Below the pieces are notes generated by a model. That model had not been told where the DNA came from and did not search any database. It was given only the letters and a program-made list of their open reading frames with translations. Position numbers and translations under genes: made by a program. Positions 20,501 through 58,583 of a stretch of 64,000 bases of DNA are shown one piece after another; position 1 is the stretch's first letter; each line of letters starts with the position of its first letter. The stretch lies in the IMG/VR virus record IMGVR_UViG_2861079508_000001, one strand, 5' to 3'. This DNA is from a virus (taxonomy: Duplodnaviria > Heunggongvirae > Uroviricota > Caudoviricetes).

Positions 20501-22270
20501 AGGTTCGAGATCTGGTTCTGTAATTGTCCAGACACCGTTCAAAACAGGCGTTTCCGCTGACGACAGAGCTTTTGAAAACGTAACCTTTGTTATGTTTTCG
20601 CCAGTTTCAAGAACATCGCGCTCAACGATTTTGCCTTCCTGATTCAATATCCGAATAAAGCTGCCGCTTTTAGCTAACGACACAGGCGCATCGAGAGTGA
20701 TGCTGTTTTTGGTAAACTCCACAATTCGACCGGAGTTACGTTTACCTGCACGATATTTGTTCTGAATCAGAACGGTTTCACCGGGCATCAGAAATGAGGC
20801 GTCTAAGCCGGCAGTAAATGTAATTACATCCGACTCCATTCTGGCGGTATACAAAAGCCACAAACCAACTCGGTGAGCCTGGCCTCGGCTTGTACATCCA
20901 AATGCTACGACTTCTGTTTTACGCTCACCATAACGGCGCATTGCGTCCTGATCTTCAACGTACTCGATGTTTTGCTTATAACCGTCCTCCTTGTTGTTGT
21001 AGGTTACGAGCGCAACGGATGGGCGATCTTTACGCGCAGAACCTTTATAGGTAAACAGTCCATCTTTGACGTTGGAGTTGGTAAACATCATTACTGGATC
21101 TGATGGGCTATCCTGCATGATGTTAACCATGCCACCAGCCCAAAACACCATGCCGCGGAATGCACCGGCAATATCCTGAATTAATCGGTATGCGTCTTGT
21201 CGACTGGTGATCTGCGTATTGATTGCAAAGCGTTTCTCTTTACCCCCAAAGCCATCATCGACCTCTTCGTCACAATATCGACCAATCTGGTAGAGCTGGC
21301 CGAGGTCAATCATGGATTCCGACACAAATTGCCCAAGACCATACCGAGTATTGGTAAGCAAATCGTAGAGAATCCACGCAGGGTTTGAAGAAGACAACAG
21401 CTTAAAAGTACCGTCCCATACGCCGACATAAGTATTGGTGTATTCGTTGTCTCGGATTTTGATACCGCGCACCAAATACGAACGGGAAGGCATTGTGCTA
21501 CCAAACTGCTCTGAATTGACCTTCAAGCCAACAAGAGCAGAGTTAGGGTAGTTCATTGGCGTGTCGACAATCTCACCTATGGAATCAACCCATGTGTCGT
21601 TGTAGAGGTACTGGCTACTGTTATCATCTGTAAGACGAATCACCCTAACCTTGTATGCACGACCAGGCTTAGGTAGTTTCAGCTCATAGCTACGGTAATA
21701 CACGCCGGTTTTCTTTGCCGTTAGCGTGATATCAACGCTTTTCTCACCTTCTGCCACTACATCAGAAAATGTTGCGTCTCCGTTGGCGATCTGGAATTTG
21801 TACTTCACCGTAGTGCCATTTGTATCGCCAGAGCTTTTATCAACGCTACGTAAAGAGGGGAATTTCATGATGACACGAACGCGATCAGCTTCATCGTTAT
21901 CGATTGAAACCGTAACGTCGTGTGTTTTTTTAAGCTGAATATTTACGGACTTAGGCGTTTCGACAAAATCAAAACCAGCCATTGGCGTCTGGTCTTGTGA
22001 GCCGTCACGAAAATCCCATGTAATACCGCTGAAGTTGGAAGAGCCATCTTCATTCAAGATCGGTAAATCGTCGATGAAGATCGACTTTGCGCCATTTACC
22101 AGGCCACCGATAACCCCCTCGCCAAGAAGGTCGAGGATGGCTGCCATAGCACGAGAATTGACAGTATCATCAGCTTCAACCGGGGTACGGCTGGAGCTTT
22201 TACTTTTCTTGCCACCAGCACCGGCAATAAGAAGCGGTAATTTTTTCTTCTTGAACTGTTCCATGTCCAA
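17552..22270 (-). CDS. tail tip / host-specificity protein (lambda gpJ-like) with tandem coiled-coil repeat insertion
   Basis: 1572 aa; AFGCTSRGQAHRVGLWLL and KYVAGIALG...SQFLVQADRF match conserved gpJ blocks; ~12 tandem ~30-aa repeats (D.SAA...EQEARA..D.AL..QI..L..KV). Confidence 0.75.
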   Translation of the reverse strand: MDMEQFKKKKLPLLIAGAGGKKSKSSSRTPVEADDTVNSRAMAAILDLLGEGVIGGLVNGAKSIFIDDLPILNEDGSSNFSGITWDFRDGSQDQTPMAGFDFVETPKSVNIQLKKTHDVTVSIDNDEADRVRVIMKFPSLRSVDKSSGDTNGTTVKYKFQIANGDATFSDVVAEGEKSVDITLTAKKTGVYYRSYELKLPKPGRAYKVRVIRLTDDNSSQYLYNDTWVDSIGEIVDTPMNYPNSALVGLKVNSEQFGSTMPSRSYLVRGIKIRDNEYTNTYVGVWDGTFKLLSSSNPAWILYDLLTNTRYGLGQFVSESMIDLGQLYQIGRYCDEEVDDGFGGKEKRFAINTQITSRQDAYRLIQDIAGAFRGMVFWAGGMVNIMQDSPSDPVMMFTNSNVKDGLFTYKGSARKDRPSVALVTYNNKEDGYKQNIEYVEDQDAMRRYGERKTEVVAFGCTSRGQAHRVGLWLLYTARMESDVITFTAGLDASFLMPGETVLIQNKYRAGKRNSGRIVEFTKNSITLDAPVSLAKSGSFIRILNQEGKIVERDVLETGENITKVTFSKALSSAETPVLNGVWTITEPDLEPMRVRIVNIAQGETSGSFDITAVENNPSKYEAIDNGATLIPQNTTVLDPTYSKPSNLQITEGTYLSSPGNLSVKLTATWEGKSPEYWISWRRSDENNVSNWQSARVTEEQYEIVNVAENGRYDFQLYAVSFNGKKTEIISTVYQVLGTMTPPDAPTSLTAVGDYRNVILNWVNPDSVDLDHINVYASQTNNLDTAKLIAESASTTFTHAGLGDSETWYYWVRASNKRGMLSPPNSNLGTEATTRDVLSFLAGKITSSELGQALLEDINSKASQEAVDELNEHINQSVESLEGSVNDVKEDIAELDKQFSDNLAGFEIKFNERSDALENAQTELKGEVSATIDKVNEAFEKIDATDAAIVEIENTVSEHDKALANTVEAIKAARDEAAALIAKESEARVEGDAANAKQLEVLQSTVEESSAAVEEMKKTVAEVDRASAELTTNIEALAKTNIDLALRQDEDQHKQMVNNAKIATTQKTFADDMSAMATKVEEIRVEIGEDIKASILEESTARADGDEALAKRVTQLQSKFEGDISAAISTEQEARTSADEALTTQITQLESKVSNDIVAAIKEEQEARATEDSALASQITQLQAKVDDDISAAIRSEQEARASGDSALAKQINQLQSKVDGDISAAITQEQEARASADQALSREINSLRAQTGTDIAAAVAVETKARTDADSALSTQISSLTAKANDLEASLARETTARADGDTALTKEVSSLKAQTAKDISAAVAVETQARTDADSALSSQITKLTSQYKEDIKAAVATETKTRTEQDAALATQITNLESQTAANISAAVTTETTARTQADNALSGRIDTLKAEVDGNTATIQQQATAIADTNKKVSTAWTLKMETSTSGGQKYVAGIALGIDTTGLSQFLVQADRFGLVNSVNGKITTPFVIENSIAYMNGAYIKDGTITNAKVGDLQSTNFVSGRSGWRFGKNGTLEINGNSGGNGRLVINGQRIDVYDDNNVLRVRIGLL
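18000..18960 (-). repeat. tandem ~90-bp coding repeats inside gpJ-like gene
   Basis: Encode ~12 copies of a 30-aa coiled-coil unit. Confidence 0.6.
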
Positions 22271-24808: not shown

Positions 24809-27800
24809 TTAGTTACGTTGAGTGTTTGGGTTGAGAGATCCGCCAGGGCGTTTCTCTTGAGCGATAGTCTCAAGCGCGATTGCTTTCATCCGTTGAGCGG
24901 CATTGTTCCATATGCTTTCTGTATCGCCGGATTCAGTTGTGCTACCGTCACTATGGACGTTGATCTCAATTGATACCGGAGAAAGAACATTTCCTCCTCC
25001 ACTCATACCATCGGTACTGAGCGTTACAGGGATTGTTCGACCATCAGGCAATGGAACATACGCCTCATTCATATCGCCTTCCCCAAACAACGCCAATTGA
25101 GGTGAGTTGGCGATACCGCCTTTCTGGTATGCCCGGAGCGGGATCACGCCGTCTTTTCCGAATATGCCACCATTTGCAAACTTCGGAATTGCAGGAATAC
25201 CATTCGTGCCATCGGCAGCAGAACTGGTCAGATTGTTGAACCCGGAAGTTGAGCCAGAAGAACCGGACATCAATCCATCGAATCCACCACCAGCCCATAC
25301 TGAAACCAAACCAGATGCAACTGTCGCGCCGAAATTCAACCACTTATTACCAGAGCCGGAAGCATTAGCTCCAAGCATTGCAAACGCGGCAGACAGAGCG
25401 CCGGTAACAGAGCTGAGGTTCTGCATCGAGAAGATGGAGTCCTTCACTGCTTTTGTCTCAGCATCTTTGGCTTCGGTGCTATCAAATAGCCCCGATACCC
25501 AGCTACCAATCGCATTTGTTGCTGTGCCAATTGCGCTGGTGGTCTGCTGTGTTGTTTGCCCCAATCCAGTTACCGAACTGGACGTCTCCTTCGTGGCTTC
25601 TCCTACCGACTTGTCGCCATTAACAGTGTTGCCCATTCGTACACCTTGATTGGCAACGGCAGAAGCAACTCCAGTGAGCAAATTGCCACTCTGTGAACTA
25701 CCAGCTGCGGTGGTTCCCATCCCCAACATGTTCATTAGAGGCAGCGTGATTTGCGACTTCACGACCATATTGGTGATATCTTTCAAAATGGACTGAGATA
25801 GGCTGGAGAAGCTCATCTTCCCGTTAATAACGAAATCAGTCAGGACATCAGTTAAGCCACTAAACAAATCAGTCCAGGTGCTTTCGATCTGCTCTGCCAA
25901 GTTTTCGTATTCCAGTGCCAACTTCTGCGTCGCAGTCCCCGTCTCTTTAATAAGCGCGGTATTGCCAGCAGCAATCAGTTGATTGATTTTCTTTGTATAA
26001 AGCGCCACAACTTTAGGATCAGACGCCTTATCACGAAGTTCTATCAACGCTTTGAGATTGCGGTTGTAGGTGTCTTCGAAATCGGCAACTTTCTCTTCGC
26101 GAGACGGCGTATAGCCAGCACTAATAATGGAATCCGCCTCCGGTGCCCAAGTGGAGATCATCTGCTCAACATTGCGGCGATTAAACATCTCACGATATTC
26201 AGGTGTCGCATTTTTGAGGTCTTCAAGACGTTTTTTCGCCTTGTCGATCATCTCTTGAGTGATGAACTCGTTAGGAACCGCATTAGCCAAATCTGTCAGC
26301 GATTTCGTTGTATCGCGAAGAGACTGATCAAACGATACCGTAGCCTTAGAGCTTTCACCCATTTGCCCCATAAGCTGATCGGCTTTGTCCAGAGCCTTCT
26401 GGTATCCGGCTGCCAGTTTCTGTTGCGCTGCCTGTTCCTTCTTGGCCGCACGCTGCGAGGCGTTAGCTGATCGTTGGGCTGCTTTCTCGGCAGCTGCTGC
26501 ATCCTGTTCACGAGCTTTAGTTAGTGCAGCAATGGCTGCGGCACGCTCTTCATCGCTCATTTTCTCCAGAGAGCTGGCGCTGGATGCTTTCTGCAAATTA
26601 AGCTGCGTCTTGAGTTGTTTAGGCCCAATAATCGGCTTACCTTCGAAGTCCATCATCGGAGTGCCGTCAGGCAAAGTACGCTGATAAGTCGCAGAATTCA
26701 TCTGGTTTCGCATATATTGCGCCAACGCCTTCTGAGCAGCTTTATCAGTTGTACCTAACCCAAGAACAGTCCCCTGGTTTGACATTACGCCCTTACCAGT
26801 TTTGGCCGCGTTATCTCTCTCGAACTCTGCCTGAGTAAGTTCCTGAGCAACGGCTTCCAAATGCTCCTGATAACCACGAATACTGCCTTGCAGTTTCTGG
26901 ATTTGCTCGGTATTGCCATCCTTTTTGGCTTTTTCAAGCTGATCATTAAGAGTCGCGATTTGCTTCTCGGTCGCATTCTTACGAGAAGAAAGTGAATCAA
27001 CCAGTTTTTGCGCAGGCTCCAGATAGCTTTTGTTTACCGTTTCACGTAACGGTGCCAATAGCTTGTTCTTTTCGTCATCTGAAAGTGAACCGTCATCATT
27101 GATTTTCTGGATCTTATCCAGAGCCTCCTGCCGGGCTTTCACGAATGTTGCCGCGAAAATCTGGTTTTCCGCTCGAATTTTCTCAATCTGAGATTCGGCA
27201 GCCTCTTTAGCCAAACGCTTTGCTACAGCGCCGTCACCAAGAGCTATCGTGCCGGTTATCTTTTGATACTCTTCCTGATTTTTTTTCAGGCGTGCTTCGA
27301 TGTCAGCCTTCGACTCTTTGTGAGTAATAACACCGGCAGAGTTAGATACGTAATTAACACCCTCACCAGTTTTTAATGCTCGTTGATCAGCAAGAATCTG
27401 CTTTTCGAGCTTTTCTGCGCGGTCGGCCATTTGTGCACGTTTGGCCGCCGTCATCGCCTCTGGTATTTTCCTAATCTCGTCAACGACCTTTGAAGTTTCG
27501 CTGCGGAGCATGGTCATGTACGTGATTAGGCCAGCAACAGCTACAGTGGCAACTGTAAATGCTGCCCCTATAGGGTTTGCTGCAATGAACGCCGTTAATC
27601 CAGCAAAAGCGCCTTTAAGCCCCGTAATCGCCCCACGGATGGCGAAAATAAGAGAGGGGATCGGAGCCAGCCCCATACGTGCCGCACGATTGAATCGGGT
27701 TACTGCTGTAGCGCCGAGGTTAAATGGAGTCTGTATGGCGGTCGCCATCGTGGCAAAGGTGCTAACCATCTGGCTGCCTGCGCCAACTACCCCCATGATC

Positions 27801-28547
27801 CCTGCTCGCATCAGTTTGAACGCAACCATCGCGGCCACGACCTTACCGAGATTAATTACCAGCTCTTGGTTCTTTGCTAACCATTGAGCAAGCTGACGCA
27901 ACCCATCAATTGCCGTCGTTAACCCCGAGCCTAAAGAATTGGCAAACGAAATCCCTTCGGCGCTATTCATGATTGAAGCCAGTTCTTTCATCCCCTTCGA
28001 TAGAGAATCCAGATATCCGGCCTGACCAACCCGATCAGCAAATAACGTGAATGACGTCTGAAGTTGCGCCAGCGCACCTGTGTAGGTTTGCATCATGTCT
28101 TTCGCTGCGTTCTCATTCTCCGCACGCAGACCAACAAACATCAGAGACAACGCCTGTTTTGCCTCAACCGTACCGCTGGCAACGGCTTTAGTCAGTTCCC
28201 CCATAGTGATGCCTGCGGCGTCTGCCATTGCCTGCATCGCGTTAGGAACGGCTTCACCTAATTGCTGACGTAGCTCTTCCATTGACACAACGCCCTTACC
28301 GGACATCTGCTGAACGGCCACAGCCGCACGTTTCAACAGCTCACTATCACCACCAAAACGAGCAACGGAGTCCACCAGCGCCTTCAGAGAACCATCGGTT
28401 GGATCTAAGCCAGCAGAACGAAACTTCACGAAGGAATCTGTTAACGCCTGCATCGCGAACGGCGCATTTTGCGCCATGTCTACGATGTACTTCATATCAT
28501 CAGCGGCAGCCTGGCCAGGGTTGGACTTCTCCTTATTCAACCCTCGA
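24809..28547 (-). pseudogene. tape measure protein, 3' portion (gene interrupted by IS insertion)
   Basis: Long mostly helical ORF (1243 aa from an internal TTG) downstream of chaperone genes; reading frame is continuous with the 29858..30714 fragment once the IS and one TSD copy are removed. Confidence 0.7.
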
Positions 28548-28601
28548 TGAACCGCCCCGGGAATCCTGGAGACTAAACTCCCTGAGAAAGAGGTAAACAG
28601 G

Positions 28602-28928
28602 ATGACTAAAAATACTCGTTTTTCCCCCGAAGTCCGTCAGAGGGCGATTCGTATGGTTCTGGAAAGTCAGGGCGAATATGACTCACAGTGGGCGGCAATT
28701 TGTTCCATTGCCCCAAAGATTGGCTGTACACCGGAGACTCTGCGTGTCTGGGTACGCCAGCATGAGCGGGATACCGGAGGCGGTGATGGCGGGCTCACCA
28801 CCGCTGAACGTCAGCGTCTGAAAGAGCTGGAACGTGAAAATCGTGAACTGCGCCGCAGTAACGATATCCTTCGCCAGGCTTCCGCTTATTTTGCGAAGGC
28901 GGAGTTCGACCGCCTCTGGAAAAAATGA
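28602..28928 (+). CDS. IS3-family transposase OrfA (HTH/leucine-zipper part)
   Basis: 108 aa [23 protein letters not shown]...; I recognise this as the IS629/IS3-group OrfA; ends at an A-run slippery site. Confidence 0.8.
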
Positions 28929-29815
28929 TGCCACTGCTGGATAAGCTGCGTGAGCAGTACGGGGTCGGACCGCTATGCAGCGAACTGCATATTGCCCCGT
29001 CAACGTATTACCACTGTCAGCAACAGCGACATCATCCGGATAAACGCAGTGCCCGTGCGCAGCGCGATGACTGGCTGAAGAAAGAGATACAGCGCGTATA
29101 CGATGAAAATCATCAGGTGTACGGTGTGCGTAAAGTCTGGCGTCAGTTGTTACGGGAAGGTATCAGAGTGGCCAGATGCACTGTGGCACGTCTCATGGCG
29201 GTTATGGGACTTGCCGGTGTTCTCCGGGGTAAAAAGGTCCGTACGACCATCAGCCGGAAAGCCGTTGCCGCAGGCGACCGCGTAAACCGTCAGTTCGTGG
29301 CAGAACGACCTGACCAGCTGTGGGTGGCTGATTTTACTTACGTCAGCACATGGCGGGGCTTCGTCTATGTGGCGTTCATCATTGATGTGTTTGCCGGATA
29401 CATCGTGGGGTGGCGGGTCTCATCGTCTATGGAAACGACATTCGTGCTGGATGCTCTGGAGCAGGCGTTATGGGCCCGTCAACCGTCCGGCACAGTCCAT
29501 CACAGTGATAAAGGTTCTCAGTATGTATCGCTGGCCTACACACAGCGGCTTAAGGAAGCCGGATTACTGGCATCAACAGGAAGTACTGGTGACTCGTATG
29601 ACAACGCGATGGCGGAGAGCATCAATGGCCTTTACAAAGCGGAGGTAATACACCGTAAGAGCTGGAAAAACCGGACAGAAGTGGAGCTGGCCACACTCAC
29701 GTGGGTGGACTGGTATAACAATCGACGATTGCTGGAAAGGCTGGGCCATATCCCACCGGCAGAAGCAGAAAAAGCTTATTATGCTTCCATCGGAAACGAT
29801 GATCTGGCAGCCTGA
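28925..29815 (+). CDS. IS3-family transposase OrfB (DDE catalytic part)
   Basis: 296 aa overlapping orfA in the -1 frame at AAAAAATGA; integrase-type DDE core (e.g. [16 protein letters not shown]). Confidence 0.8.
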
Positions 29816-29857
29816 GTTCACAGATAAAACACTCTCCAGGAAACCCGGGGCGGTTCA

Positions 29858-30714
29858 CGAAGCATCACCCGCATACGTTCCATTTCGGCCGCAGCTTCAA
29901 CAATAGGCTTCTGCCACCCAAACATGATGTCAGTAACCGTTCTGGCTGCATCTCCGATCTCGCCAAGCAGGAAAATGTTGCCACGAAGGCCAGAGAACAT
30001 ACCTCCTTCGTTACTTTTACCGCTATGGCCAGAAGCGCCGCTACGCCGCCCGCTACCACCATCGCCACTTCCAGATGTACGAACGCGTACCGGCTTGCTA
30101 ATCAGTTGCTGACGTCCGATAACTTCGTCCATCTGCTCACGAACCTTTTTCAGTCCCTCGGCAGCCTGACTCGTTGTGACACCCCAATTACTGAGTCGCT
30201 TCGTCGTGGTATTAAGGCGCGTATTCATGCCACTCACGGACGCAGAGGCTTCTTTGACCTCCGTACCAAAGCGGCTTGCGCTTTTGCTTGCATAGGTCGC
30301 CCAATCAGAGAAATCATTTAGCTCTGATTGCACTTTACGTAATGACGCGGTGAGTTTATCTACTGAAGAAGTTGTCGTATCGACGCGCTCAATCAGGGCT
30401 TTAAGACCAGAATTGAGGCTGGTGATGTTGCCACGCATTTTACGCGTAGCATCTGAAGCAAGCTCAAAACCGGCAGCTACATCCTGTAGTTTATCTGCTG
30501 TAGAATCGAGCTTGCTTTCCAGAACGCCAATGATACGGGCGACCGAACCCAAAGAGCGTTCAAAGGTTTGGATTTTTTGAGCAGGCTTTGTTACCTGCTC
30601 ACCAAATCGAGTAAGCAGTTTCCCCGCACGATCGATTGACGCTGTAAACTGTTTGTCTTCCAGCGACAGGATAAACTCTACGTTTTGTGACATTCCCTTG
30701 TCATCCTCTGCCAA
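29858..30714 (-). pseudogene. tape measure protein, 5' portion (truncated by IS; last 13 codons of ORF are IS-derived)
   Basis: ORF 29818..30714 reads from TMP start into the IS right end; codon 285 ends in the CGA target duplication. Confidence 0.7.
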
Positions 30715-49803: not shown

Positions 49804-50286
49804 TTACACGCCATCAAGGATGTGGATGCGGTTGCTTGCGTATACATTCAGCATAAAGTTAGCGCAAAACAGTTTCCATGTATCAACGCCAGCGGTATAC
49901 GTAATGTTTTTGCATTTAATTGCATTGTTGGCGATCCGCATCCCCTGCGATACTGCTTCATCGTCGGAAAATTTGAACGACGATTGAGTTTTAATCCAGA
50001 CAGAAATCTGCGTAGCGAACTCAATCAGCTTGGACTGGCAGAATCGCCCGGAGCGCACCGGAAGGACGAACGTTCCGAATCCAGAATTTACCACATATGC
50101 TTTCTCAAATACCCGCGAGTAACGACGATTGCCAATGATGTCGCGTGCAATAATGCATTTTTCTTGTGCTGACAGTTCTACCGTCTCATTGTCGCGCCAT
50201 GCACCAAGTACTCGTTTTTCAATGTCAGAGAACGTTACAGCGATATTGCCATGTGCGGGTGCGTTTACAGTAGCGATAAAATTCAT
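49804..50286 (-). CDS. hypothetical protein
   Basis: 160 aa; own promoter with motif-1 operator between GATAAT and RBS. Confidence 0.45.
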   Translation of the reverse strand: MNFIATVNAPAHGNIAVTFSDIEKRVLGAWRDNETVELSAQEKCIIARDIIGNRRYSRVFEKAYVVNSGFGTFVLPVRSGRFCQSKLIEFATQISVWIKTQSSFKFSDDEAVSQGMRIANNAIKCKNITYTAGVDTWKLFCANFMLNVYASNRIHILDGV

Positions 50287-50307
50287 GATTAATTCCTTAT
50301 CGTAAAT

Positions 50308-50322
50308 AACAAATTGTTTTCT
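50308..50322. promoter_or_regulatory. motif 1 operator-like palindrome
   Basis: Minus-sense layout GATAAT - 8 nt - AGAAAACAATTTGTT - RBS - ATG of gene 49804..50286. Confidence 0.55.
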
Positions 50323-50636
50323 TGTTGGTGTTAATTATCGTTGTACGAATAAGGCGTCAAAGTGGAAAGTTGCGGTAGCCGGACGGGAACAGGTGGGTTT
50401 GTCGGTTGCCTGGAGGTAAGAGGTTGGTGTTATTAGCCTGAGGGAAACAGGATGGTCATTTAAGACCACCAATGCTGGTGGCCTTAATAATTATCGCCCG
50501 ATTACGCTAAGGATCTTTTCCTCAACTGATTTGTTGTTGCGACTAAACTGCCTTGCGTATCTGATGACAGAAGAGGCGTTTTGCTTTCTGACCATCTCGG
50601 CTCTTTCCTTCAGGCGTTTCTTGAAATCGCCCATAT

Positions 50637-51083: not shown

Positions 51084-51095
51084 TCTGGCTTAATA

Positions 51096-51120
51096 AAATG
51101 GCGCGGTTTACGCGCCATTT
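51096..51120 (-). terminator. rho-independent terminator after amber-interrupted gene
   Basis: Minus-sense AAATGGCGCG-TAAA-CCGCGCCATTT followed by TATT. Confidence 0.6.
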
Positions 51121-51128
51121 AAAGAGGA

Positions 51129-51524
51129 TTAAGCGAATACGCTTTCAGGGATTAAGGTGTCGGCAGGAATGCCAGAGGTAATGCGCAGGCCGTACTGACC
51201 AATCCAGGTAGTGTTGGTATTCAGGCTGGAGGCGAATACGGTGTTAACCATATTCATCATGGTTTCAAACACCTCTTCATCAACCTAGCGGAAGTAGTTC
51301 TCGATTTTCAGCAGCAGCGGGTCAGTTGCATCGAGAATGGACTGGTATTGAGTCGCGTACTCGCCGCCGGAGGCATCACCTTTACGCACGATCGTACTGG
51401 CCTGGACTTCGGCACCAGTTTCGGTGTTGTACGTAACAACGGTAATTTTTGCCACATTCTTACCTTCGGCGGTTTCAGAGGCATAGTAAACATCAACTGT
51501 CAGTTTTTCGCGTTTAACGGTCAT
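51129..51524 (-). pseudogene. hypothetical gene interrupted by in-frame amber (TAG) codon at 51285-51287
   Basis: 79-codon ORF ends at TAG but the same frame continues for 52 protein-like codons to TAA at 51129-51131, which is immediately followed by a hairpin+T-run terminator. Confidence 0.5.
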
Positions 51525-51562
51525 TTCACTCTCCGTAGTGTATTGGTTATTTTTATATTCTA

Positions 51563-51587
51563 TAATCGTAAGTATTTACTTACAATA
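51563..51587 (-). promoter_or_regulatory. motif 2 element
   Basis: AATCGTAAGTATTTACTTACAATAC upstream of amber-interrupted gene. Confidence 0.4.
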
Positions 51588-51649
51588 CAAAAAGCCCCGT
51601 AAGGATGGCGGGGCTGTCGTACTGTCGACTAATTGCCACTTGCACATTA

Positions 51650-51961
51650 TCAGGCTATTGCCATCACTGATGCTCTCTGAATTTCTTGCTGGGCCACGCG
51701 GTTAACTTCCATCAAGGCCAGTTCGAGCTGATGTTCCGGCCACATTCTTTGAAACGCCATCCAGCCTTTTCCACGCTGGCGACGAACATTCATTACATAA
51801 CGAGTAAAGGTGTTTTTATCGAAAGACACCGCTGTTTCACGGAACAGACGAATAGAGGTTCCATTGGCAACGATGTCCAGCAAAGTTAATTGAGCAACCA
51901 GCGCAGGCTTCTCTTTTCTCTTCTGGTCTTTGTCCAGACCAAGAACCAATGATTTTTTCAT
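51650..51961 (-). CDS. hypothetical basic protein
   Basis: Start set at internal ATG (MKKSLVLGLD...) because the motif-1 operator overlaps the longer ORF. Confidence 0.45.
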   Translation of the reverse strand: MKKSLVLGLDKDQKRKEKPALVAQLTLLDIVANGTSIRLFRETAVSFDKNTFTRYVMNVRRQRGKGWMAFQRMWPEHQLELALMEVNRVAQQEIQRASVMAIA

Positions 51962-54408: not shown

Positions 54409-54702
54409 TTATCCCTCACAATTTCCAATTTTCCAGACCATCGTCTATTTCAGCGTCAGGGTGGAATTGTACCGCATCAAATCCTACATCGAGCACCTTT
54501 CGAATGTTCTTGATGGTTTGCTATGTGACACCGTAATCACGCAGCTTTTCTTCCCTCCCCTGACTCCCCCATACTCCGTTTCTGTACCCAATTGAGTCCG
54601 AGATTGTATGGTGCTCGAAACAGATATTTGGTAGACACTCAGAGTCATGCTGTGTAACGAGGGTAGGGCTACTAACTGTCGTCTTATACAATTTGGTGAG
54701 TT

Positions 54703-54951
54703 TCAGCATTTTACCACCCCGTTCGGAAACAACTCATTCGCCGTAGTTGATATAACCTCCCAATTAACGCCGACATCAGCGTTATGGCATTGTCTGATTT
54801 TTTGCATCACCTGTACGCATTGTTCATCAGTGAGATCTGTCCTTACTTCAGCAATATCTTCTTTGTGCCACATAACCATGAGTAAGGGTTCGTCTTCTGG
54901 ATAGTTTTTCAGTTTCTCGATGATTTCTTTTGCTGTTCCAAACATCTTCAT
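54703..54951 (-). CDS. hypothetical small protein
   Basis: 82 aa; RBS GGAG; two motif-1 copies bracketing a GATAAT upstream, abutting the metG terminator. Confidence 0.5.
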   Translation of the reverse strand: MKMFGTAKEIIEKLKNYPEDEPLLMVMWHKEDIAEVRTDLTDEQCVQVMQKIRQCHNADVGVNWEVISTTANELFPNGVVKC

Positions 54952-55085: not shown

Positions 55086-55104
55086 GCGAAGAGAGGTTGT
55101 TTAA

Positions 55105-57138
55105 TTACTTAACCTGGTGGCCAGGTTTAGCACCAGCATCCGGGCTTAACAGGAAGATATCTTTCCCGCCGGGGCCAGCAGCCATCACCATGCCTTCAGA
55201 GATACCGAAGCGCATTTTACGTGGTGCCAGGTTAGCCACCATAATGGTGTGACGACCAATCAGTGCCTGTGGATCTGGATAAGCGGAACGGATGCCTGAG
55301 AAGACATTACGCTTTTCACCACCGAGATCCAGCGTCAGGCGAAGCAGTTTGTCAGAACCTTCTACAAACTCTGCGTTTTCAATCAGCGCCACGCGCAGGT
55401 CAACTTTGGCGAAGTCGTCAAAGGTGATAGTTTCCTGAATCGGGTCGTCAGCCAGTGGGCCAGTTACCGGTGCGGCTGTGGCTTTCACTTCTTCTTTGGA
55501 TGCTTCCACCAGTGCTTCAACCTGCTTCATATCGATGCGGTTATACAGTGCCTTGAACGGATTCACTTTATGGCCCAGCAGCGGTTGCTGGATACCATCC
55601 CAGGTCAGTTCTGTATTCAGGAATGCTTCTGCACGTTCAGTCAGTTTCGGCAGTACCGGTTTCAGGTACGTCATCAGCACGCGGAACAGGTTAATGCCCA
55701 TAGAGCAAATCGCCTGCAGATCGGCATCGCGTCCTTCCTGCTTTGCCACCACCCACGGAGCCTGTTCATCAACATAGCGGTTAGCCAGGTCAGCCAGTGC
55801 CATGATTTCACGGATAGCTTTGCCAAATTCGCGGCTTTCCCATGCTTCGCCAATCACTTCAGCGGCATCAGTAAAGGTTTTGTACAGTTGCGGGTCAGCC
55901 AGTTCGCTTGCCAGCACGCCGTCAAAACGCTTGTTGATAAAGCCTGCATTACGGGAGGCCAGGTTAACCACTTTGTTAACGATATCGGCATTCACACGCT
56001 GAACGAAATCTTCCAGGTTGAGATCGATATCATCAATGCGCGAAGAGAGTTTCGCAGTGTAGTAGTAACGCAGGCTGTCGGCGTCAAAATGATTCAGCCA
56101 GGTGCTGGCTTTAATAAAGGTGCCGCGAGACTTGGACATCTTCGCGCCGTTCACCGTCACATAGCCGTGAACAAACAGGTTGGTCGGCTTGCGGAAGTTG
56201 CTGCCTTCCAGCATGGCAGGCCAGAACAGGCTGTGGAAGTAAACGATATCTTTGCCGATGAAGTGGTACAGCTCGGCGGTGGAGTCTTTCTTCCAGTATT
56301 CGTCGAAGCTGGTAGTGTCGCCGCGTTTGTCGCACAGATTCTTGAAGGAACCCATGTAGCCAATCGGCGCGTCCAGCCAGACGTAGAAGTATTTGCCCGG
56401 TGCGTTCGGAATTTCAAAACCGAAGTAAGGTGCGTCACGGGAGATATCCCACTGTTGCAGGCCAGATTCAAACCACTCCTGCATTTTGTTTGCCACCTGC
56501 TCCTGCAACGCACCGCTGCGGGTCCATGCCTGCAACATTTCGCTGAAAGAAGGCAGATCAAAGAAGAAGTGTTCGGAATCACGCATTACCGGTGTAGCGC
56601 CAGAAACCACTGATTTCGGCTCGATCAGTTCCGTCGGGCTGTATGTCGCGCCGCAGACTTCACAGTTATCGCCGTATTGATCCGGCGCTTTACATTTCGG
56701 GCATGTGCCTTTTACAAAACGGTCCGGCAGGAACATGCCTTTTTCCGGGTCGTACAGCTGAGAGATGGTGCGGTTTTTAATAAAACCGTTCTCTTTCAGG
56801 CGAGTATAGATAAGCTCGGACAACTGACGGTTCTCTTCGCTGTGCGTCGAGTGATAGTTGTCATAGCTGATGTTAAAGCCTGCGAAATCAGTCTGATGTT
56901 CCTGACTCATTTCGCCAATCATCTGTTCCGGTGTGATACCAAGCTGCTGTGCTTTCAGCATGATTGGCGTACCGTGGGCATCGTCGGCACAGATGAAATT
57001 AACCTCGTGGCCGCGCATTCGCTGGTAACGAACCCAGACATCAGCCTGGATGTGCTCCAGCATATGGCCGAGGTGGATTGAGCCGTTAGCGTACGGCAGC
57101 GCGCACGTCACCAGAATTTTCTTCGCGACTTGGGTCAT
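55105..57138 (-). CDS. metG: methionine--tRNA ligase
   Basis: 677-aa product from the ATG at 57136-57138 (track ORF is 43 codons longer from an upstream alternative start); HLGH and KMSKS class-I motifs; sequence I recognise as Escherichia-type MetG. Confidence 0.95.
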
Positions 57139-57295
57139 AGTAGGCATTACTTCTTTGTAGTGAAAAGGGGCTTGATAGTAACAAAATGGCCTTATGTCTG
57201 CCATGTGATAACAGCATTTCTCATAAATGATTAAATGTCGTAGCTGGAGTACACTACAAGGCGACAATTGCGCAAATTAAAATAAAGGAGACGGG

Positions 57296-58396
57296 ATGAG
57301 CGAGTCCAAATCGCCGGATGCCCTGAGAGCAATGGTAGCCGGTACGCTGGCTAATTTTCAGCACCCAACCCTGAAACACAACCTGACTACGCTTAAAGCG
57401 TTACACCATGTTGCGTTGATGGATGACACACTGCATGTCGAACTAATCATGCCTTTCGTGTGGAATAAGCCTTTTGAAGACCTGAAAGAGCAATGTAGTG
57501 GTGATCTGCTCCGTATCACTGGCGCAAAGGCTATTGACTGGAAGCTGTCGTACAACATTGCCACGCTTAAGCGCGTCAAAAACCAACCAGGCATTAATGG
57601 CGTTAAGAACATTATCGCCGTCAGCTCAGGCAAGGGCGGCGTGGGTAAATCCTCCACGGCGGTAAACCTGGCACTGGCGTTGGCTGCTGAAGGTGCGAAA
57701 GTTGGTATTTTGGATGCCGATATCTATGGTCCATCAATTCCAACCATGCTGGGCGCGGAAAACCAACGTCCAACCTCACCGGACGGTACTCACATGGCAC
57801 CTATCATGTCTCATGGCCTGGCAACCAACTCTATTGGTTATCTGGTCACCGACGACAATGCAATGGTGTGGCGTGGACCGATGGCCAGCAAGGCGCTGAT
57901 GCAGATGTTGCAGGAAACACTGTGGCCTGATCTGGACTATCTCGTTCTCGATATGCCACCGGGCACTGGTGATATTCAATTGACGCTGGCGCAGAACATT
58001 CCTGTAACTGGTGCGGTTGTGGTAACTACGCCGCAAGACATCGCGCTGATCGATGCGAAGAAAGGCATTGTGATGTTCGAAAAAGTCGAAGTGCCGGTAC
58101 TGGGTATCGTTGAAAACATGAGTGTGCATATTTGCAGTAACTGCGGTCATCACGAGCCAATTTTTGGCACCGGTGGCGCACAGAAACTGGCCGAGAAATA
58201 CAACACGCAGTTGTTAGGCCAAATGCCACTTCATATCTCTCTTCGTGAAGATCTGGATAACGGAACACCAACCGTTATTAGTCGTCCAGATAGTGAATTT
58301 ACGGCTATTTATCGTGACCTCGCAGATCGCGTTGCTGCCCAAATGTATTGGCAAGGTGAAGTAATACCTGGCGAAATCGCATTCCGCGCAGTGTGA
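57296..58396 (+). CDS. apbC: iron-sulfur cluster carrier ATPase ApbC/Mrp
   Basis: P-loop [10 protein letters not shown], CxxC (CSNCGH); divergent from metG as in the Escherichia chromosome. Confidence 0.95.
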
Positions 58397-58583
58397 TAAA
58401 AAGGTGGTGCTTTTGCCGTTACGCACCACCCCGTCAGTAGCTGAACAGGAGGGACAGCTGATAGAAACAGAAGCCACTGGAGCACCTCAAAAACACCATC
58501 ATACACTAAATCAGTAAGTTGGCAGCATCACCGAGCGCCAGCGGCGAACATATGAGCTTCGGAAATACTAGACATTCTTAACT

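Follow-up and report, generated by a model that had tools for sequence, protein, structure and literature searches.

The 64-kb stretch of DNA analysed here (64,000 nucleotides, referred to as the window) carries an in-frame amber codon which, with a probability of about 0.88, is a naturally occurring nonsense allele of a small accessory gene (phrog_2473 family, 131 amino acids) on an SSU5-type Escherichia coli phage-plasmid. The premature TAG is seen as cta on the plus strand at positions 51285-51287 and interrupts a 131-codon gene (51524..51129, minus strand) at codon 80.

Structure of the interrupted gene

Translation of 51129-51524 on the minus strand gives 79 sense codons, the TAG, 51 further sense codons and a TAA, 132 codons in total, and the frame reads MTVKREKL...KIENYFR, TAG, VDEEVFETMM...PESVFA, TAA. 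A preliminary description of this DNA had reported the same amber-split gene with the same coordinates. It gave no strand, and its coordinates fit a minus-strand reading; the peptide it quoted for the downstream part is the exact translation found after the TAG. The remaining open reading frame (codons 1-79, 51288..51524, minus strand) encodes a product of 79 amino acids, and a Shine-Dalgarno sequence, GGAG, can be read six nucleotides before the ATG (51531..51534, minus strand). Further upstream there is a promoter-like sigma-70 site, TTGTAA-17 nt-TAGAAT (51557..51585, minus strand), with nine of 12 consensus positions matched; it is a consensus match alone, and such matches are no more frequent in the region than in shuffled sequences. 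This site sits downstream of a hairpin, at about 51590-51625, that ends the preceding gene.

The original stop codon, TAA (51129..51131, minus strand), identified from the sequence and the alignment, is followed by an intrinsic-terminator-like hairpin, AAAUGGCGCG-UAAAC-CGCGCCAUUU, with a UUUUAUU tract (51092..51120, minus strand), which is kept in the relatives. The hairpin has 10 base pairs with a GC-rich core and a predicted folding energy of -19.3 kcal/mol (z = -5.74), and none of 200 shuffled sequences folds as well, so the strong terminator reported earlier right after the TAA holds up. A simple terminator scan omitted it because the U-tract lies partly within the stem. With these elements the gene looks like a self-contained promoter-gene-terminator unit, and from this anatomy it is plausible that the transcript reaches past the TAG. 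Codons 81-131 (51132..51284, minus strand) form the best-conserved part of the family in the alignment (TTWxGQYGLRI...PESVFA) and are identical across all TAG-bearing contigs examined; in the window allele they would now be untranslated or weakly translated. Within them there is an in-frame ATG at codon 89 (51260-51258, minus strand), preceded by GAGG. The gene is one of several small genes of unassigned role on the minus strand between 49800 and 52500 (phrog_1641, phrog_7971, phrog_2473, phrog_5125 and phrog_7645), in a moron-like organisation.

Orthologues and the derived state of the stop codon

An open continuation of 51 codons has a probability of about 9% by chance ((61/64)^51), and for this reason it is not decisive on its own. 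What is decisive is the uninterrupted coding sequence (CDS) of 396 nt, annotated as "hypothetical protein", that pSJC33-2, pCUVET20-PYO4.2 and p09EL50 carry at the corresponding position, within an identical gene order, between the phrog_5125 and phrog_7971 genes. The orthologue in pSJC33-2 and pCUVET20-PYO4.2 is WP_000216801.1, and about 200 other complete E. coli plasmids carry the intact gene. Within the gene the window and pSJC33-2 differ at one base, position 51287 of the plus strand, which is A in the window and G in the relatives. In the alignment, codon 80 is accordingly TAG for the window, CAG (Gln) for pSJC33-2 and pCUVET20-PYO4.2, and AAG (Lys) for the more distant p09EL50.

The same picture is obtained with diverged homologues. 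In a search of 5.8 billion proteins the full-length homologues were all of 131 amino acids, and the residue at position 80 was Q, K, S, T or R. The intact orthologue, identical but for Q80, matches phrog_2473 with an E-value of 3.6e-56, over residues 1-131 of the 139-position profile. Using tblastn, single-piece matches covering residues 1-130 were found in SSU5 (JQ965645, 93223-93612), in Klebsiella phage-plasmids (pJN2-26, ST13-OXA48phi12.3 and others) and in a Proteus phage, and Gp62 of phiKO2 (50103-50492) also matched in a single piece, over residues 5-130. The protein is thus common to the SSU5-type circular and the N15-like linear (phiKO2) phage-plasmids, with 32% identity over 96% of the length, which may point to a function linked with life as a plasmid-prophage.

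As the orthologues, near and distant, are uninterrupted, with CAG in the nearest relatives, the comparison shows that the TAG is a derived CAG to TAG nonsense mutation. Members of the family have an uninterrupted frame of about 131 codons, and the window, with its TAG at codon 80, by this alignment carries a disrupted allele of a family member. Two explanations had been put forward in the preliminary description, a recent nonsense mutation (pseudogene) and a site of readthrough or suppression, and the sense codon in the relatives argues for the first. Orthologues that also stop here ahead of a separate downstream gene, which that description named as a refutation, were not found, the relatives having a single CDS. 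Two short family entries, P0010 and P0011, were considered as further truncated alleles and rejected, being frameshift-scrambled and not amber; they come from public assemblies of related plasmids (ENA contigs of about 111 kb), have products of 78 and 76 amino acids, and look like indel errors of long-read assembly.

The downstream frame shows no secondary lesions, as would be expected of a recent mutation and equally of a frame still in use. Functional readthrough or suppression would mean that the TAG is decoded usefully, either as Gln by a supE-like glnV suppressor of the host or by a suppressor tRNA of the phage-plasmid, giving the full-length protein, perhaps at a lower, regulated level. 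A suppressor inserting Gln would restore the exact ancestral protein. The 51 downstream codons, intact in every TAG-bearing contig, and the persistence of the allele in many samples are compatible with this possibility, and the tRNA cluster of the relatives lies outside the window. Against it, only one shallow lineage has the stop: none of more than 380 complete plasmids (201 + 180) and none of the diverged homologues carries it, and at 0.1% divergence an intact downstream frame would be expected in any case. No tRNA gene was found in the 64-kb window, and the four tRNAs of pSJC33-2, Ser(UGA), Thr(UGU), Tyr(GUA) and Asn(GUU), include no suppressor. Moreover, TAG is the terminator of seven of the 67 other long, non-overlapping open reading frames of the window, including those matching the terminase large subunit and the DEAD-box helicase of pSJC33-2, so that efficient suppression would be costly. 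We consider useful decoding of this TAG very unlikely.

Predicted effect of the truncation

The intact protein was modelled with AlphaFold from an alignment of six sequences (pLDDT 79, pTM 0.74). The model has a four-stranded beta-meander (residues 8-63), two helices (69-79 and 83-100) and a fifth strand (113-120). In the model the stop falls directly after the helix 69-79, and the helix 83-100 and the strand 113-120 are lost. The most conserved motif of the family (T106-W107, G109-I115, P126-E127 and V129-F130) is lost as well. The 79-residue fragment is predicted to be unlikely to fold or function, and from the conservation and the predicted structure the TAG allele is most likely a null allele. 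Regarding function, phrog_2473 is a family without an assigned function. For the intact protein, Pfam gave sub-threshold noise alone and NCBIfam gave nothing, while a Foldseek comparison of the model with the PDB and a viral library returned no match at E <= 0.001.

A second way for the allele to remain active would be as a split gene, in which translation stops at the TAG and re-initiates at the ATG of codon 89, giving pieces of 79 and 43 amino acids that reassemble into a working protein. The ATG, 24 nt after the TAG, has GAGG about 11 nt upstream, the break in the model lies between two helices and not inside a secondary-structure element, and gene callers annotated the 43-amino-acid open reading frame in most other assemblies. 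The presence of GAGG-ATG at codon 89 explains these calls, and gene-caller output is no evidence of translation. The same GAGG-ATG is found in identical form in the intact orthologues, so it has not been selected for re-initiation after a split, and its spacing is at the upper limit for a Shine-Dalgarno sequence. Re-initiation would also leave out residues 81-88, with the start of the helix 83-100, and no diverged relative has a two-gene arrangement. Together these points make a working split gene highly improbable, and a null allele remains the preferred reading of the truncation. For annotation, the locus is better described as a pseudogene or a disrupted allele of WP_000216801.1 than as two genes (79 and 43 amino acids), as automated callers have done elsewhere.

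The replicon carrying the gene

A 651-bp query around the gene had matches in 238 of 5,426 complete E. coli genomes, only on plasmids of about 95-125 kb and never on chromosomes. Four Escherichia phage records (Cyrano, two CMS-2020a records and PhiR41_1) gave matches with this query as well. The plasmid pSJC33-2 (NZ_CP080257.1, from chicken faeces) is 99.9% identical to the 64-kb window, apart from an insertion of 1,310 bp. The annotation of pSJC33-2 lists the structural genes of a siphovirus module (terminase, portal, major capsid, tape measure and tail fibres), together with RepB, ParB, DnaB-like helicase, primase, DnaE, NrdAB, thymidylate synthase and dfrA51. The dfrA51 gene is the dihydrofolate reductase gene of the Salmonella phage-plasmid SSU5 (PMC12217456). 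The studied gene itself has a homologue in SSU5 with 54.6% identity (tblastn).

The gene content of pSJC33-2, the presence of dfrA51 and the 54.6%-identical SSU5 homologue place the window, on the evidence of its sequence, as part of an SSU5-type E. coli phage-plasmid. Through the annotation of pSJC33-2, the replicon shows the features that define this type: a siphovirus module combined with replication and partition genes, a circular form of about 100-115 kb, and homologues in SSU5.

The insertion of 1,310 bp is an IS3-family element (28548-29857) with 25-bp inverted repeats (28548-28572 and 29833-29857), orfA (28602-28928) and orfB (28925-29815). It splits the tape-measure gene into pieces of 298 and 1,243 amino acids (ORFs 29818-30714 and 24809-28540, minus strand), and pSJC33-2 lacks the element. 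As the tape-measure gene is split, the copy of the phage-plasmid bearing this element is probably unable to make tails. The exact N-terminal tape-measure fragment product is not on record elsewhere, which is uninformative about the sharing of the insertion, since gene callers may choose another start. Another difference is an in-frame deletion of 12 bp at window position 21451, relative to pSJC33-2 25737-25748, in a gene annotated as phage tail tip fiber protein. Beside an IS1 remnant, metG (methionine-tRNA ligase) and apbC, both of chromosomal type, are found at about 55100-58400 of the window, based on the pSJC33-2 annotation of the matching region.

The upstream neighbour of the studied gene also differs between the two replicons. 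The phrog_5125 gene (103 amino acids, 51650-51961, minus strand) is intact in the window and annotated as "frameshifted" in pSJC33-2 (54635-54944), and a 2-bp difference at window positions 51774-51775 accounts for the frameshift. Each of the two near-identical replicons has thus lost a different small gene of the cluster. Evidently, sporadic inactivation of single genes is common in this group of phage-plasmids.

Probable origin of the mutation at a Dcm site

On the coding strand the relatives read CGC-CAG-GTT, which contains CCAGG, and the window reads CGC-TAG-GTT, which contains CTAGG; the changed base is the internal C, replaced by T. The former Dcm site occupies positions 51284..51288 on both strands, with CCTGG on the plus strand of the relatives (CCAGG in the coding sense) and CCTAG in the window (CTAGG). 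A change of the internal C of an ancestral CCWGG to T is the signature of a Dcm hotspot, and this is what is found, as G to A, at plus-strand position 51287. The Dcm enzyme of E. coli methylates the second C of CCWGG. When this 5-methylcytosine is deaminated, a T:G mismatch results, which Vsr very-short-patch repair normally corrects, and Dcm sites are recognised hotspots of G:C to A:T mutation (PMC2715241, PMC3527292, PMC13250602).

How often such a position would be hit by chance was estimated from the 29 substitutions between the window and pSJC33-2 and from about 194 methylatable positions in about 62.7 kb. Of the 29, one falls on a methylatable position, where about 0.09 would be expected (P(>=1) ~0.09). 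The origin by Dcm deamination rests on this one event, for which the context is suggestive and falls short of proof. Most E. coli carry dcm-vsr.

CCWGG motifs have also been a source of systematic consensus errors in nanopore sequencing. The changed base being within such a motif, an artefact of sequencing or assembly, such as a basecalling error related to methylation, could in principle produce a false TAG. None of the other 96 CCWGG motifs of the window has changed, and every other difference from pSJC33-2 lies outside such motifs. Assemblies from 10 sample accessions, one of them with a contig at 52x coverage, show the same TAG. A systematic basecalling error at the Dcm motif was ruled out by the 96 intact sites together with the agreement of independent assemblies, and the chance that the TAG is an artefact of any kind is close to nil.

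Frequency and lineage of the TAG allele

Among complete plasmids the allele was not seen: none of 201 E. coli plasmid records and none of 180 from PLSDB contains an exact match to a 61-mer centred on the TAG, each being one mismatch away. In exact searches, a TAG-containing 33-mer was absent from IMG/VR, from the GTDB representative genomes and from the JGI metagenomes. The allele surfaced only through an exact-protein index of ENA metagenome assemblies and Logan assemblies of public runs, which returned the exact 79-amino-acid product on 20 contigs and the intact ancestral protein on at least 1,000. The TAG is present at the DNA level in contigs from all 10 sample accessions examined, one of these contigs being of 66.6 kb with 52x coverage. 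The TAG allele is therefore real, natural and rare, and its occurrence in assemblies from 10 sample accessions excludes both the sequencing error that the preliminary description had considered and a laboratory origin.

With respect to the latter, the preliminary description had compared the codon to a laboratory-style amber allele, that is, a conditional mutant of an engineered phage. The chemistry of the comparison stands, CAG to TAG being the classic amber change, and the provenance does not. Metagenome assemblies and public read sets contain the allele, the replicon is wild-type-like, 99.9% identical to a plasmid of a chicken-faeces isolate, and an IS insertion in the tape-measure gene is no feature of a laboratory phage stock. 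A laboratory-made allele has a negligible probability.

The TAG-bearing contigs, most of which have the haplotype of the window, fall into groups according to their similarity with it. L014, L016 and L017 are 100% identical to it over 6-14 kb, as are L007 and L009 (4-14 kb for the whole set); L007 and L009 are shorter extracts of the L015 and L016 contigs, and L008 is an extract of the L019 contig. L011, L018 and L019 differ from the window at 2-5 bases. The differences of L013 and L015 are limited to a block at 55261-57031, where most fall on every third base; position 41763 in L013 is the one exception. The block lies in the captured metG gene, which suggests either gene conversion with the chromosomal metG of the host or a chimeric assembly of the plasmid and chromosomal copies.

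The remaining contigs, L010 and L012, are mosaics with about 98% identity to the window. In L010 the TAG is still linked to the base at 51086 that is specific to the window lineage. In L012 the segment around it is of the window/pSJC33-2 type, yet 51086 has the ancestral base, and 51029, 51040 and 51090 carry foreign alleles. Complete plasmids differing from L010 or L012 at the TAG alone were sought, and the best matches, with about 98% identity, were too distant to inform. Recurrent mutation of the hotspot on different backgrounds was considered as an explanation for these mosaics, and the marker-by-marker comparison favoured one origin, with L012 ambiguous. For this contig a second independent origin of the TAG, recombination and a chimeric metagenome scaffold are indistinguishable. 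Overall, the most parsimonious account of the contig sequences is a single origin of the TAG followed by recombination or by chimeric metagenome scaffolds.

The distribution also bears on the possibility of an adaptive loss of function, in which the truncation would have been positively selected, the intact protein being costly or recognised by host or phage defence, and the allele would have spread because of the mutation. Its presence in many samples, on partly recombinant backgrounds (L010 and L012), and the self-contained promoter-gene-terminator unit, typical of accessory cargo, are in line with such selection. However, the allele is rare in comparison with the intact ancestor (20 contigs against at least 1,000), and a single truncating allele, at codon 80, was found, the other short family entries being partial or frameshift-scrambled. 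The spread could just as well be due to hitch-hiking with a successful clone. Selection for the loss is unlikely, and we favour a nonsense allele carried along with its lineage.

Proposed history of the allele

The events can be reconstructed from an ancestor almost identical to pSJC33-2, with CAG at codon 80 inside a CCAGG Dcm site. The internal C, methylated by the Dcm of the host, would most likely have been deaminated to T, and the resulting T:G mismatch would have escaped very-short-patch repair and become fixed as CTAGG, creating the TAG. Translation would now end after 79 residues with a product that is most likely non-functional, and the mRNA presumably still runs to the terminator. 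Under the most parsimonious account the allele arose once and spread with the phage-plasmid lineage into many samples. From this spread we infer that the gene is dispensable for the maintenance of the element.

For the most part this is an ordinary nonsense polymorphism in cargo of unassigned function, and as such it matters little. It does provide a clean natural example of the textbook change at a Dcm site, in which CCAGG becomes CTAGG and an amber codon arises, here on a mobile element and in a form that can be followed through public metagenomes. It also represents a natural knock-out of a phrog_2473 gene, which is present from the SSU5-type elements of E. coli and Salmonella to phiKO2. 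It is improbable that the allele is anything other than simply dead, whether partly suppressed or read through, split into a protein of 79 + 43 amino acids, or selected for the loss itself. If it were, a mutation at a Dcm hotspot would serve as a switch, circulating in nature, by which a conserved accessory protein of SSU5-type and N15-type elements is tuned or removed.

Comparison with known systems

With the intact orthologues (WP_000216801.1, SSU5, phiKO2 Gp62 and phrog_2473) the window allele shares the same gene, position, neighbours, promoter-like region and terminator. WP_000216801.1 is 100% identical to the window product except at codon 80, where the window stops and all the listed relatives are uninterrupted.

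Among systems of readthrough and suppression, the A1 protein of Q-beta and the supE/supF suppressor hosts are well-known examples. The window resembles them in having an in-frame stop followed by an open, protein-like continuation. Unlike in these systems, the relatives do not share the stop, neither the window nor the tRNA set of pSJC33-2 contains a suppressor tRNA, and TAG is a normal terminator of genes elsewhere in the replicon.

A closer likeness is seen with the classic Dcm hotspots. Coulondre and Miller are said to have described in 1978 the lacI amber hotspots at CCAGG, and an amber site of the phage lambda cI gene was reportedly studied by Lieb (cited in PMC2715241). The ancestral CCAGG, the change of the internal C to T giving CTAGG, and the replacement of Gln (CAG) by an amber codon are common to these hotspots and to the window. 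Unlike them, the window case is a single natural event on a phage-plasmid, with a probability of about 9% of having this location by chance.

Lastly, the allele is much like the ordinary nonsense pseudogenes of decaying prophages and plasmids, in which a single-base change creates a stop in non-essential cargo and the downstream frame is still intact because the event is recent. The window allele differs from these in being shared by many samples rather than private to one genome, and there is otherwise no substantive difference between them.
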